This document shows positions 13,494 through 19,495 of a stretch of DNA of 64,000 bases, in pieces (positions within the stretch are counted from its first letter, which is position 1; each line of letters opens with the position of its first letter). The DNA is from a virus (lineage: Duplodnaviria; Heunggongvirae; Uroviricota; Caudoviricetes), in the IMG/VR virus record IMGVR_UViG_3300022562_001204, positions 14,551 to 78,550 of that record; one strand, given 5' to 3'. The position numbers and the translations under genes are program-made. The notes under the pieces were generated by a model. The model worked only from the letters and a program-made list of their open reading frames with translations, searched no databases and was not told the origin of the DNA.

Positions 13494-13605
13494 GGTGCGC
13501 TCCTTGAGTATGGTGATGCTTGGCTCGATGGTGCGGAGGTATGAGGAGGGCCATGGCACCGATGAAGAAAAACACGGTGCCCAGAAGAACCTTGAGGCTC
13601 CTCAC
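13474..13605 (-). CDS. Putative 43-aa single-TM micro-protein with His-rich tail
   Basis: GTG start overlaps the upstream TGA (GTGA); hydrophobic VLLGTVFFFIGAMALLIPP. Confidence 0.45.
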   Translation of the reverse strand: MRSLKVLLGTVFFFIGAMALLIPPHHRAKHHHTQGAHHEKAST

Positions 13606-13724
13606 GAGATGCCGTACAGAAAGGAGACCAGCAATGCCGCGGTCAGTACTCCTCCGATCATGGAGAGCACTCGTTGCAATGCCAGTCTCGTGACCCGTAC
13701 GTCCTCTGCTTCCGGCGTGGTCAC
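13602..13724 (-). CDS. Putative 40-aa single-TM micro-protein
   Basis: GTG start overlaps the holin TGA (GTGA); hydrophobic MIGGVLTAALLVSFLYGIS. Confidence 0.5.
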   Translation of the reverse strand: MTTPEAEDVRVTRLALQRVLSMIGGVLTAALLVSFLYGIS

Positions 13725-14050
13725 GTAATGACCGCGGCCAGGATGACGATGGCAATGGCCACCATGATGATCGATACCGCCATCATGGCTCGACCAGCCC
13801 CTTCTGACGACTCCATAGCCTTGTTGAAGACAGTCTGGAAGTCGATGTAGTCCGTCAGAGCCCTACGGGCACCGTGAAGCGTCGCAACGAACCAGGTGAC
13901 CTTGGCCAGGCTGAGCAGCAGCACGATGGTATCGGCACCCACCGGCAGATCCGTCAACAGACCGGCATTCGGGTCGGTCAACAGGTAGGACAGCAACACC
14001 ACGACTGACCCGAGGATCATGAAGACGTAGCGAAAACGCATTTTAAACAT
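13721..14050 (-). CDS. Putative holin (3 TM)
   Basis: 109 aa, three hydrophobic segments, upstream of the endolysin. Confidence 0.65.
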   Translation of the reverse strand: MFKMRFRYVFMILGSVVVLLSYLLTDPNAGLLTDLPVGADTIVLLLSLAKVTWFVATLHGARRALTDYIDFQTVFNKAMESSEGAGRAMMAVSIIMVAIAIVILAAVIT

Positions 14051-14082
14051 GGGGTTACCTCATATTGTCAAAACACATAGGA

Positions 14083-14110
14083 TCTCGGCTGGGGCGAACC
14101 CCAGCCGAGA
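14083..14110 (-). terminator. Terminator after the acidic tail-fibre gene
   Basis: 12-bp stem, UUCG loop on the minus strand, U-rich tail. Confidence 0.8.
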
Positions 14111-14121
14111 CCATAGCCTAC

Positions 14122-17100
14122 TTAGGCAGACTTCTCTTCCGTGGAAGAGTCGTCGGTACCAGCAGCGTCAGTGGTCGACGCATCGGTCGACTCGGACTCA
14201 GCGGCCGTCTCATCGCTCGACGTTTCCGCCGAGGAGTCATCAGCCGGAGTCTCTTCGGTTGAAGCCGACTCATCGCTGGAGGCGTCGGAAGCGGGGGCCT
14301 CCTCCGTGGTCTCACTGGACGTGTCAGCTGCTTCTTCCGTCGAAGCGTCGCTGCTTTCGGTTTCCGAACCCGACGAATCCTCGGAGGCTTCCGCCTCGTC
14401 ATCAGACTCACCGGCGTCCGTCACCGTGGTATCATCAACCGATTCGCTGGCATCAGCCGAAGCCTCTTCCGTCGTATCGGTCGTTTCAGCCTCGGAAGTC
14501 TCCGAAGCCGAGTCATCCACCGTCGCATCGCTTTCGGTGGATTCGGTCGCCGTCTCGTCAGCCGTCGATTCCGAAGAGTCGTCAGCGGCTTCCGCCGTCG
14601 AGTCGTCCTCAGACACCGTCGCGTCGGAGTCAGAAGCTTCCGTATCGTCCGCCGGGGTCTCCTCAGCCGAGGCTGAGTCATCCGCAGCGGGTTCGCTTTC
14701 AGTCGCCGTCTCGTCGGAGGCAGCCGGTTCTTCCGAGGAAGTGTCGGTCGTCTCGTCGGCAGTCGACGCATCAGCAGCAGGTTCCGAGGAGGTGTCTTCG
14801 GTGGGCGTTTCAGCACTGGAGTCGGTCGAAGCCGAATCATCCGTCACATCGCTGTCGCTGGCCGCAGTGTCTTCGGAAGTGGTGGAGGGCTCTTCAGAGG
14901 CAGTTGCCTCATCGGAGGTGGAAGTCTCCGCTGTCTCGTCAGCAGCACCCGTATCGTCGCCGGCAGCAGACTCCTCCGAGGAGGATTCGTCAGCGGACTC
15001 ACTGGCGCTGTCGTCGGTAGCCCCATCAGAGGCCTCGGCAGCAGAGGTGTCATCGGTCGCATCGGTGGTCGATGCATCTGCCTCATCCGACGACTCATCA
15101 GCCTGGGTATCCTCGGTCGAAGCCGAGTCATCCGAAGCCGTCTCGTCGCTGGATTCATCGCTCGACTCGTCAGCGGCGGTGTCATCGACCGAGGTCGAAT
15201 CATCCGTGGCGCTTTCGTCAGTCGAGGTATCGCTGCCGGTGTCGTCAGCCGGAGCTTCGTCACCAGTGTCACCATCCAAATTCGCATCGGCACCGGTATC
15301 GGTGGCGTCGGACTCATCCTCGGAGGAGGACTCATCGGCCGGCACTTCGGCGTCGGTGGAACTGTCAGTGGATTCCGACGAGGAGTCGTCAGCCGGGACT
15401 TCGTCGGACGAATCCGACGACTCGCTGCCGGTATCGTCCGTTGCCGGGGTTTCGTCCGAGCTGGACTCGTCGGTCGAGGTCGAGTCATCCGAAGCTGCTG
15501 AATCACCAGACTCATCGGCCGTACCGGCGTCAGCGGAGTTGTCGTCAGTGCTGGTATCGTCCGTTGCCGGCTCTTCAGCCGAGGTATCGTCAGCCGAGTC
15601 ATCCGACGAACTGCTGTCGTCGCCGGTTGCGTCGGCACTGTCTGACGAGGTGTCGCTTTCGGTGCCGGTATCATCAGCCGGAACCGTGGTATCGTCGCCA
15701 GTCACGTCACTGTCGTCCGACGAGGTATCGTCTTCGGAGCTGGTGTCATCGCCGGTGTTGATGTCGCTGCTGTCGTCGTCCGTGGACGTATCGTCCGACG
15801 AGGTGTCGGACGAGTCTGCCGGGGTTTCGTCATCGACCTTCTCGAGGTCGATGGCTTCGTCAGCAGCCGGAATCAGGAATTCCGGGATTTCCAGACCCAG
15901 TTCACCGCAGAGGCTGTACAGGAAACCGCTGACGTTTTCCAGAGATGCCTTCAGTGCGGTATTCTCGGCCACCACGGCTTGCACGGTCTCGTCCACTTCC
16001 TGAAGCGCAAGAATCAGCTCCGGGATGAAGGCCGTGTAGACCACAGTGTTGTAGGTGTCGGCATTCGGAGATACCTTGACCGTGTTCTTGACCATCTCAG
16101 GACGCTGAGAGATCAATTCATCGGCCATGACACCACGCCGGCGTTCGCCCTTGAGGGCGCCGTTTACCGGATTGTCATTGTACGTGAAGTCGTAGATTTT
16201 GACCTGTCGCATCAGATCAAGGCCACCATCGGCCTCGACGATATCCTGCTTCAGGCGGCGGTCGGAGAGTTCGGTCAGGTTGCCCACGATCGTCAGATCT
16301 CCGTTCGACTGTTGATAGAGGGACAGCACACCTGTGTCCCAGCCACCCCAACCAAATACACCATTCGCATCGATACCCACTCCTACACTGTAACCGTTGG
16401 TGGTATGGGTAAAGGAACAACCAGCCATGAGTGTCGCGTGACTTGACTGGAAGTTCATTCCACCCATGTATGTATCTAGATCCGAACCTTTCCCCACCGG
16501 AAGGTTCGCACCGTCGATCCGGCCGGACATCGCCCCGCCGGTCTTGGGGAGATATGTCCCCAAAAGCGTATCGACCTCTGCAGTGGTGTATGCTCCGATT
16601 TGACTCGGAGATACCCCATGAGGGTTCGAATAGTTCAGCGTATGTGCCAACAATGTGTCGGCAAAGCCGTTCTGGACACTGGCGATCAGAGCATCCTGCG
16701 TCTCGAACTGGGAGATGTTCCAGTCTGAGATCGCCTGAAAGGCCGGGATGTTCGTCAGGACGATAGCATCCTTGACCCGTTCCAGGGCGTAGATGACCGG
16801 TTCGAAGCCCTTGATGTCCAGTAGCAAATGATTGTGCAGTGACGGGGGGTAAAAGCTCCACTTGTCAACCACATTCTCCCAGGCCACCGGACGGTCGTCC
16901 GTCATGATGGTCTCGTACATGTTGGCGATCGAAGTGATGCTCTGCATGTACGCACCGCCCAGCACTTGGTACGTGATACGTACACGGTCACTGACGGAGG
17001 TGTTGGTGACGATCGCCATGGAGGCGATCTCCAGGCCGGTCTTGATGGTGCCTTCCTGGAACATCTGTACGAAGATGTAGTCCGTATCCCGCACCAGCAG

Positions 17101-17265
17101 GGTGTTCGTGGAGTCATCATACATCACGAACGAGTCGGTGTAGACCGGGCCGTAGGCCGGGACCACCGCACGGTTCGAGGCCGAACTCAGAGTGATGACC
17201 TCGTCTGTGACCAGATTGTCCGGACTGGTGCCGGTGAGGTCTTCCTCATAAACGTAATCAGCCAT
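14122..17265 (-). CDS. Tail fibre/virion protein with S74 intramolecular chaperone and ~580-aa acidic disordered C-terminus
   Basis: phiKZ-type virion N-terminus (DLTGTSPDNLV); fibre-like Gly-rich segment; L-SDRRLKQDI at aa 334; coiled coil; D/E/S/T/A tail. Confidence 0.8.
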   Translation of the reverse strand: MADYVYEEDLTGTSPDNLVTDEVITLSSASNRAVVPAYGPVYTDSFVMYDDSTNTLLVRDTDYIFVQMFQEGTIKTGLEIASMAIVTNTSVSDRVRITYQVLGGAYMQSITSIANMYETIMTDDRPVAWENVVDKWSFYPPSLHNHLLLDIKGFEPVIYALERVKDAIVLTNIPAFQAISDWNISQFETQDALIASVQNGFADTLLAHTLNYSNPHGVSPSQIGAYTTAEVDTLLGTYLPKTGGAMSGRIDGANLPVGKGSDLDTYMGGMNFQSSHATLMAGCSFTHTTNGYSVGVGIDANGVFGWGGWDTGVLSLYQQSNGDLTIVGNLTELSDRRLKQDIVEADGGLDLMRQVKIYDFTYNDNPVNGALKGERRRGVMADELISQRPEMVKNTVKVSPNADTYNTVVYTAFIPELILALQEVDETVQAVVAENTALKASLENVSGFLYSLCGELGLEIPEFLIPAADEAIDLEKVDDETPADSSDTSSDDTSTDDDSSDINTGDDTSSEDDTSSDDSDVTGDDTTVPADDTGTESDTSSDSADATGDDSSSSDDSADDTSAEEPATDDTSTDDNSADAGTADESGDSAASDDSTSTDESSSDETPATDDTGSESSDSSDEVPADDSSSESTDSSTDAEVPADESSSEDESDATDTGADANLDGDTGDEAPADDTGSDTSTDESATDDSTSVDDTAADESSDESSDETASDDSASTEDTQADESSDEADASTTDATDDTSAAEASDGATDDSASESADESSSEESAAGDDTGAADETAETSTSDEATASEEPSTTSEDTAASDSDVTDDSASTDSSAETPTEDTSSEPAADASTADETTDTSSEEPAASDETATESEPAADDSASAEETPADDTEASDSDATVSEDDSTAEAADDSSESTADETATESTESDATVDDSASETSEAETTDTTEEASADASESVDDTTVTDAGESDDEAEASEDSSGSETESSDASTEEAADTSSETTEEAPASDASSDESASTEETPADDSSAETSSDETAAESESTDASTTDAAGTDDSSTEEKSA
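14125..15860 (-). repeat. Degenerate acidic low-complexity repeat region ((E/D)xPA(D/T)D motifs)
   Basis: Recurring ETPADD/EVPADD/EAPADD/EEPAAD units in D/E/S/T/A-rich sequence. Confidence 0.85.
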
Positions 17266-17803
17266 TGAATTCTTCGCCTTCTGTGTTGATCAGGAAGAGG
17301 CCCTTCTTGGACCACAGAAGGGCCGCCTTAACAATGTTCGAGGGGGTCAGACGCCCGACCTTGAGGTCAATCCCCATTTTCAGGTAAGAGTAGTTTGACA
17401 GTTCGACACACTGCCACCGGTTGTTGTCATCAACCGCCATCCCCAGGTATCCCCGGATAGCGTCAAGTACCGAATAGCGTGTTCCAATCTTCTCTTTCAG
17501 GATGTCAAGGTAAGACTCCTGCCATTCGATCCCCATGGGGAGATGGTAGAAGACGCTACCTTCGATGATCCGGGTAAACCGGATATACGGCTGTGTCGCT
17601 TCCAGAACGTAGAGTCCTTCTTCGTTCCGGTAAGCAATCCCGACATGGCCGTACTCCGAGAAAGTAAACCCACGGACGATCATCAGGATCAAACGACCCC
17701 ACCAATCGGTCTCGGTGTCGTTCCAATGAGACGTGTCGCTCCACGCCAGTAAATCCCCGGACTGCACAGCGTCCAACTGACTCGTGCTCACGATCTGATC
17801 CAT
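17258..17803 (-). CDS. Permuted papain-like (NlpC/P60, YiiX/YebB-like) amidase
   Basis: GDLL, GHVGI (His), VLEA, Y-S, and QCVEL (Cys), with His before Cys (permuted order). Confidence 0.75.
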   Translation of the reverse strand: MDQIVSTSQLDAVQSGDLLAWSDTSHWNDTETDWWGRLILMIVRGFTFSEYGHVGIAYRNEEGLYVLEATQPYIRFTRIIEGSVFYHLPMGIEWQESYLDILKEKIGTRYSVLDAIRGYLGMAVDDNNRWQCVELSNYSYLKMGIDLKVGRLTPSNIVKAALLWSKKGLFLINTEGEEFNG

Positions 17804-19084: not shown

Positions 19085-19495
19085 TTAACCTTCCGTATTA
19101 CCTGCCTTACTGTCGGGGTCCATGGCGTCAATCTCGGCCTGGAGCTGGGCCAGCTCCTCTTCCTCGGTCTGGTAAATGACCGGCTCGTTCGAATCAGTCT
19201 TTTCAACCACCTCAGGAAGATCTTCTTCAGTGGTACTGAGTTCGCTGGATGTATCCTCGAGGGTAGTTTCCACAACTTCCTCTTCGGTTTCGGATGCGTC
19301 GGATTCATCGATCGGATCTGCATCGAGGGATTCTTCTTGGAGAACGGACTCTTCACGAGCGATGAACTCGTCTTTGGCCTTCTCTACTGCGGATTTACTG
19401 AACTGGATCTGCTCTTCCTTGGGCAGGAGTTCTTCGGTCGTCGTCGAGATACTACTGCGACGGTGACGGTGAGTTTGAAAGATACGGTTGATCAT
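19085..19495 (-). CDS. Acidic hypothetical protein
   Basis: E/D-rich ORF overlapping the upstream stop (ATGA). Confidence 0.65.
   Translation of the reverse strand: MINRIFQTHRHRRSSISTTTEELLPKEEQIQFSKSAVEKAKDEFIAREESVLQEESLDADPIDESDASETEEEVVETTLEDTSSELSTTEEDLPEVVEKTDSNEPVIYQTEEEELAQLQAEIDAMDPDSKAGNTEG

Follow-up and report, generated by a model that had tools for sequence, protein, structure and literature searches.

Trimerisation of S74 intramolecular chaperones is textbook knowledge. The chaperones of the K1F endosialidase (3GW6), the GA-1 neck appendage (3GUD) and T5 pb1 (4UW8) have the Pfam family PF13884, an SDxxxK dyad, the fold of beta elements and a long C-terminal helix, which forms the trimeric bundle, in common, and all three proteins end with the chaperone. 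The myelin regulatory factor (MYRF) is the best-known protein with an internal S74-type domain, the ICA domain, and has a large piece past the cut that includes a membrane anchor C-terminal to this domain (PMC3742443, PMC8326128). The Bdellovibrio MAT fibre Bd3182, a member of an S74 subgroup, is a trimeric adhesive fibre whose S74 self-cleavage was tested by an S782A substitution, and it has been studied with a C-terminal mCherry fusion (PMC10769870). The MYRF membrane anchor and the Bd3182 fusion indicate that extensions past an S74 domain are tolerated. Here we analysed a stretch of 64,000 nucleotides of viral DNA (the window; positions 14,551 to 78,550 of IMG/VR record IMGVR_UViG_3300022562_001204), in which a tail-fibre precursor gene encodes an S74 chaperone followed by a polyacidic tail. 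Like the three phage chaperones above, its S74 domain directly follows the fibre tip; unlike them, the chain continues for 577 residues.

Profile, motif and fold all place the precursor in the S74 fibre family, from which it deviates solely in the usual terminal position of the domain. The Pfam profile Peptidase_S74 (PF13884; curated cut-off 22 bits) aligns to residues 334-392 with 36.7 bits and E = 5e-9, over positions 1-57 of its 58. A search of the whole genome with the PF13884 profile (42.2 bits) showed that the fibre holds the genome's only S74 domain. The dyad motif SDxxxK, as defined in PMC10769870, is intact at the domain start as S334-D-R-R-L-K339, and an alignment of 19 S74 fibres (18 relatives and this one) shows no variation at Ser334, Asp335 or Lys339. 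An AlphaFold2 model of residues 215-520, computed as a monomer, has predicted local distance difference test (pLDDT) values of 84-96 over residues 334-464, including a long helix at residues 410-456, and values below 50 from about residue 487. The best Foldseek match of this model in the PDB is the MYRF ICA domain (7dc3; E = 2e-5, target-normalised TM 0.75), followed by 3gud, 3gw6 and 4uw8. A PDB sequence search with residues 1-480 gave no match. The usual S74 architecture, in which the domain forms the protein C-terminus, is not kept here; terminal position is a typical and not a defining feature of the family, and MYRF deviates from it as well. MYRF differs from the fibre in being eukaryotic, in carrying a membrane anchor and a folded C-terminal region past the domain instead of a polyanion, and in releasing a transcription factor as its product. 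Bd3182 differs in being a bacterial secreted protein.

The original prediction, made from the sequence letters, had read the protein as a virion N-terminus, a fibre segment, an S74 chaperone with Ser334, a coiled coil and a polyacidic tail. Pfam, PHROGs, the alignment and the model all bear out this anatomy, and the modelled helix agrees with the coiled coil. PHROG 2163 (virion structural protein) matches residues 2-224, and this N-terminal domain occurs in 292 phage records, mostly from jumbo phages. Residues 230-445 are matched by tail-fibre PHROGs; the short segment at residues 226-333 would become the C-terminus of the mature fibre once the chain is cleaved. The homologues of the fibre come almost all from jumbo phages of Pseudomonas, Erwinia, Ralstonia, Burkholderia and related hosts. 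The closest named homologue is gp70 of Burkholderia phage FLC9 (BDD79589.1, 493 aa), which has the same order of N-terminal domain, fibre and S74 domain and shares 29% identity over residues 6-392. FLC9 is a jumbo phage, like the source of the fibre studied here. In contrast to this fibre, FLC9 gp70 stops straight past the chaperone helix, and neither gp71 nor gp72, which are encoded downstream, is acidic.

The tail (57 kDa) makes up 55% of the precursor length. Its composition is S131, D130, T93, A91, E79, G17, P15, V11, N3, I2, L2, K2 and Q1, that is, 36% D/E and 39% S/T. The predicted lack of aromatic residues, Cys, His, Met and Arg holds for the whole tail, with no F, W, Y, C, H, M or R present. 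The companion claim of a single, terminal Lys holds from residue 481 onward, where K1045 is the sole Lys, but fails for residues 471-480, which contain another Lys and a few aliphatic residues. The net charge of the tail is about -207, with a fraction of charged residues of 0.37 and a net charge per residue of -0.36. The charge is evenly spread: it stays between -16 and -20 in every full 50-residue bin, and runs of acidic residues reach 3 at most and runs without them 5. D prevails early in the tail and E late. Recurring (E/D)xPA(D/T)D units had also been predicted, and they stood up to testing. The strict motif [ED]xPA[DT][DE] occurs in 7 copies, and 13 of the 15 prolines are followed by Ala and 12 of the 15 lie in E-x-P, neither count being reached in 20,000 shuffles. 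E-x-P-A units number 13-15. At the DNA level the tail is no tandem array: Tandem Repeats Finder reported one 21-nt unit only, in 1.9 copies. The DNA of the tail contains many diverged direct-repeat families with 60-88% identity. A PHROGs search with the tail found no family, and an ESM Atlas search with the tail alone gave no usable match. Among the acidic segments of the whole genome, that of the fibre is the largest (594 aa) and the next is 83 aa long.

To place the tail among relatives, residues 1-470 were searched with HMMER against 1.84 billion cluster representatives. This search retrieved 4291 homologues, of which 293 have E <= 1e-30, and the best is 40% identical and 447 aa long. Among the best 150 of the 4291, which were listed, all 18 S74-bearing relatives end at most 37 aa past the chaperone match. 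None of the 152 relatives examined has an acidic low-complexity segment. In the alignment, the C-termini of the relatives differ in length by 3-35 aa. The S74 region also matches the S74 end of 14 PHROG families, and in 13 of them the match stops within 13 profile positions of the profile end, the exception being phrog_9942. These counts agree with the earlier statement that S74 domains normally end the protein. The original prediction had further proposed a search of related phages for an S74 domain followed by an acidic disordered region; the former was found in the 18 relatives and the latter in none.

Searches aimed at the tail itself gave a similar picture. Peptide patterns found nothing in IMG/VR viral contigs, and neither did peptide patterns and an exact 41-mer from the tail in JGI metagenome contigs. 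Against 50,697 phage records, megablast with the whole gene, sensitive blastn with the tail DNA and tblastn with the tail were all negative, although filtering for low complexity probably leaves little of the query visible to tblastn. A word-index protein search with the whole protein, probably swamped by acidic words, returned no tail-bearing relative. The same search with the chaperone region only returned no match, and with residues 1-470 it returned two distant matches only, both without a tail. Among the relatives searched, the tail thus appears to be a lineage-specific singleton. The best metagenomic relative has a 311-aa, extremely Gly-rich low-complexity protein 3' of its fibre gene (L003:1819-2754 (+)), a further instance of low complexity beside a fibre gene. 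In FLC9, the 655-aa gp73 (L001:7585-9549 (-)) has about 400 C-terminal residues of low complexity, rich in acidic residues, Gln, Pro and Gly, and 20% D/E overall. Jumbo phages thus have long acidic disordered regions in proteins of other kinds, as FLC9 gp73 indicates, though there not on the fibre.

Several lines of evidence indicate that the tail is real. A 101-kb contig produced by a second assembler from marine sediment, the probable source sample, is identical over positions 13600-17400, at a depth of 15 and without variants. In two runs of a mangrove study, 151-nt contigs with a depth of 2 match eight stretches of the tail with 95-99% identity. The synonymous codon usage of the tail agrees with that of the genome (e.g., GAC 0.59 in both), and synonymous codon-usage scoring of all six frames did not separate them. 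The frame is open throughout, although a single substitution could turn 139 of the 577 tail codons into a stop. A terminator-like hairpin also lies shortly past the fibre stop codon. Compared with the mangrove contigs, 18 substitutions were listed, 10 of them synonymous; the 16 transitions include 9 synonymous ones (p = 0.05). Each of the 8 amino acid changes is an exchange among A, T, S, V, G and N, with D and E untouched (p = 0.026). The tail thus shows weak signs of constraint in its reading phase. Taken together, the second assembler, the mangrove fragments, the substitutions, the codon usage, the open frame and the hairpin exclude an assembly artefact and make a recent, meaningless read-through unlikely. 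Artefact and trivial read-through of a lost stop had been named beforehand as the weak points of the original prediction, and the second assembler, the mangrove contigs and the hairpin speak against both.

The mangrove data also hint at length variation. One contig lacks exactly 105 bp in frame, which looks like length variation through unequal recombination; its basis is weak, a single depth-2 contig with just 30 nt on the short side. The matching contigs of both mangrove runs all lie inside the tail (14287-15777), with none on the gene head or the flanks, which may reflect mosaic exchange of a tail module or patchy coverage at depth 2. An antisense ORF (open reading frame) at 14141-16003 (+), 620 aa long and rich in S, V, A and E, overlaps the tail, as do further long open frames. 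All these frames are by-products of low complexity, and the antisense ORF, which opposes the direction of all neighbours, was rejected as a real gene. This ORF has the same third codon positions as the sense frame, and substitution patterns cannot separate the two. The coordinates of the fibre gene, its domains and the associated features are collected in the table.

Features of the tail-fibre precursor gene and its 3' end (positions in the 64,000-nt window)
Feature	Position	Strand	Basis or remarks
Tail-fibre precursor gene, whole	14122..17265	-	open for 1047 codons (1047 aa)
Conserved virion/baseplate-attachment N-terminal domain, residues 1-225	16591..17265	-	PHROG 2163, E 5e-55
Short fibre or tip segment, residues 226-333	16267..16590	-	tail-fibre PHROGs, modelled beta strands, 19-sequence alignment
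Peptidase_S74 intramolecular chaperone, residues 334-470	15856..16266	-	dyad Ser334/Lys339, helix 410-456, ~15-aa hydrophobic or acidic linker
Polyacidic disordered tail, residues 471-1047 (577 aa)	14125..15855	-	composition, pLDDT, mangrove contigs
35-codon segment lost in one mangrove contig	14558..14662	-	flanked by diverged direct repeat at 105-nt spacing
Terminator-like hairpin	14081..14112	-	14-bp stem, 10 G-C pairs; begins 10 nt past fibre stop codon

The anatomy of the precursor is solid and unusual, and what we infer concerns its trimerisation, its cleavage and the role of its tail. Tentatively, we favour the explanation that the gene encodes a short tail fibre with an S74 chaperone and an acquired, translated tail, which would act in cis as a disposable polyanionic bristle. 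Before cleavage, the tail would be a highly soluble, non-sticky "entropic bristle". It would shield the unfolded fibre and chaperone, which are prone to aggregate, and hold them in solution until they trimerise. A charge regime such as that of the tail, a strong polyelectrolyte with no hydrophobic or basic residues, is that of swollen, non-aggregating coils, and the alphabet of the tail is near that of engineered XTEN-type solubilising polypeptides. Long D/E runs destabilise or stall translating ribosomes, and the tail avoids such runs. Three chains would trimerise via the chaperone, and Ser334/Lys339 would then cut each chain at Ser334. Cleavage at this position after trimer formation is expected because the SDxxxK dyad is intact and from what is known of the family (PMC10769870, PMC3742443, PMC8326128). 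The 36-kDa mature fibre (residues 1-333) would stay on the virion, and the 72-kDa fragment of chaperone and tail, with a charge of about -217, would be discarded. By the same reasoning from dyad and family, the released product would be a trimeric chaperone with three polyanions. The tail would be tolerated, as it would exit the C-terminal helix bundle at the end facing away from the fibre and would later be thrown away.

Several points weigh against a role as a bristle in cis. The fibre family folds without a tail, since no relative examined has one (18/18 S74-bearing relatives among the best 150 of 4291 lack it, and acidic segments number 0/152). Three like-charged tails per trimer should, if anything, oppose trimerisation, and a length of 577 aa far exceeds the usual needs of a solubility tag. 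The signals of selection are borderline and come from 18 substitutions in contigs of very low depth, over third codon positions that the antisense frame shares.

The explanation that survives next best, although we regard it as rather doubtful, is near-neutral growth. A stop codon would have been lost, and slippage or unequal recombination would then have expanded an acidic, S/T-rich sequence at low cost and with no specific function; such expansion would be cheap because the part past the chaperone is discarded. The singleton status of the tail among relatives is consistent with such growth, as are the C-termini of the relatives, which already differ by 3-35 aa. The many diverged short direct-repeat families and the length polymorphism between repeats at 105-nt spacing point the same way. 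The prevalence of D early and E late suggests segments of unlike age, and the E-x-P-A units could be remnants of a duplicated unit. However, the frame has stayed open regardless of its many codons one step from a stop. The strikingly even spacing of the charge, with acidic runs no longer than 3, and the placement of the hairpin at the end of the extended gene also argue against aimless expansion, as does the share of the precursor spent on the tail. The synonymous excess and the unchanged D/E residues count on the same side, both weakly.

A trans effector is an unlikely explanation. The released trimeric chaperone with its three polyanions would act in the late-infection cytoplasm. As a decoy or sink, it could draw off polyamines, divalent cations, or basic proteins of the host or of defence systems that bind nucleic acids; it could also be the scaffold of a coacervate. 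The fragment set free by cleavage would be trivalent, with the mass and charge per chain given above, and D/E residues are unaltered among the 8 amino acid changes. Short binding motifs are a possible reading of the E-x-P-A units, whose frequency no shuffle out of 20,000 matched. The setting also suits such a role. The genome encodes a 621-aa ORF (L005:1614-3479 (-) = G000:C1:176213-178078) that is a homologue of a protein of a Klebsiella jumbo phage annotated as "nuclear shell protein" (98% coverage, 22% identity); its best match is in FLC9, with 30% identity. The phage is therefore probably nucleus-forming, an assumption of the original prediction that this homologue and the jumbo-phage homologues of the fibre make reasonable. 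With a nuclear-shell homologue encoded, host nucleases and tail assembly would probably share the cytoplasm.

A phage precedent for an effector of this kind is offered by SPO1 Gp44, whose disordered segment has been proposed as a single-stranded DNA mimic that binds RNA polymerase (PMC8208478). This segment (residues 56-122) and the tail are both phage-encoded, disordered, without basic residues and strongly negative. They differ in that the Gp44 segment has 67 aa with 57% D/E and belongs to an early host-takeover protein with an adjoining DNA-binding domain, whereas the tail is far longer, less acidic, rich in S/T and part of a late structural precursor. DNA-mimic proteins (Ocr, ArdA and the Gp44 type) imitate the DNA backbone in charge density or carboxylate spacing and have a known DNA-binding target. 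The tail, with -0.36 per residue, acidic runs <=3 and about 2.8 residues to each charge, is a far sparser polyanion than DNA, and the idea of a strict nucleic-acid mimic, which had been put forward originally, is weakened. The high Ser/Thr content also counts against an effector in trans, a late structural gene would come too late to counter defences as infection begins, and no relative examined bears the tail. The bolder form of the idea is more doubtful still: that chaperone "waste" is reused in trans, with about 650 negative charges per trimer that would bind up cations or basic, nucleic-acid-binding proteins of defence systems or the nucleoid, or seed a condensate for tail assembly.

It is improbable that the fibre stays uncleaved, or that the tail stays attached, and gives the virion an anionic brush. 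Brushes of polyanions adsorb poorly to surfaces of negative charge, and for a phage from marine sediment with related contigs from mangrove, such a brush could make virions stick less to sediment particles or debris, or cover the tip that binds the receptor. However, Ser334, Asp335 and Lys339 are intact here and invariant across the family alignment, and an uncleaved chaperone with its brush would cap the fibre tip. S74 proteins that have been solved and tested, moreover, are cut once they have trimerised, and the cut uncovers the binding tip (PMC10769870 for Bd3182). Least probable by far is misassembly, sequencing error or a wrong fusion of two genes: the full-length record is single and metagenomic, and low-complexity regions misassemble easily, but an independent assembler gave an identical 101-kb contig, tail fragments recur in a second study, and the tail has no tandem DNA repeat, native codon usage and a hairpin past its stop codon. 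The variant in which a separate acidic gene was fused in error was rejected, as the close relatives (FLC9 and the best metagenomic relative) have no such gene 3' of the fibre gene.

The window is contained in a 257,149-bp virus record of an uncultured phage, with direct terminal repeats and a completeness rating of 100%. The ATG of the fibre gene overlaps the stop codon of an upstream 181-aa gene, and the neighbouring genes all have the same direction as the fibre gene (-). A small membrane protein and an endolysin-like gene lie 3' of it, followed by a dTMP-kinase operon. The hairpin, which is strong but has a weak T-run, separates the fibre gene from the holin-like gene at 13721-14050. Two genes upstream of the fibre gene, a 136-aa ORF at 19085-19495 (-) contains an 83-aa acidic segment; it has no PHROG or Pfam match. 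Outside the window, an 1803-aa open frame (locus L007; G000:C1:254166-254681 (-)) shares the N-terminal domain of the fibre with 30% identity and has no S74 domain. This frame probably encodes a second, long fibre that uses the same adaptor, and the phage seems to carry at least two fibres on one adaptor.

S74 chaperones have been treated as terminal, throw-away folding aids, and here a 57-kDa polyanion sits behind the cut site. If a role in trans were true, it would be a moonlighting of phage S74 auto-processing, akin to the release of a factor by the same cut in MYRF. The question raised is whether the discarded piece is used, for solubilisation, for shielding or as a polyanion in trans, or is free to grow, and either answer informs the evolution of phage fibre genes. 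The finding also bears on natural XTEN-like solubilising sequences, which may be useful for the production of recombinant tail fibres.

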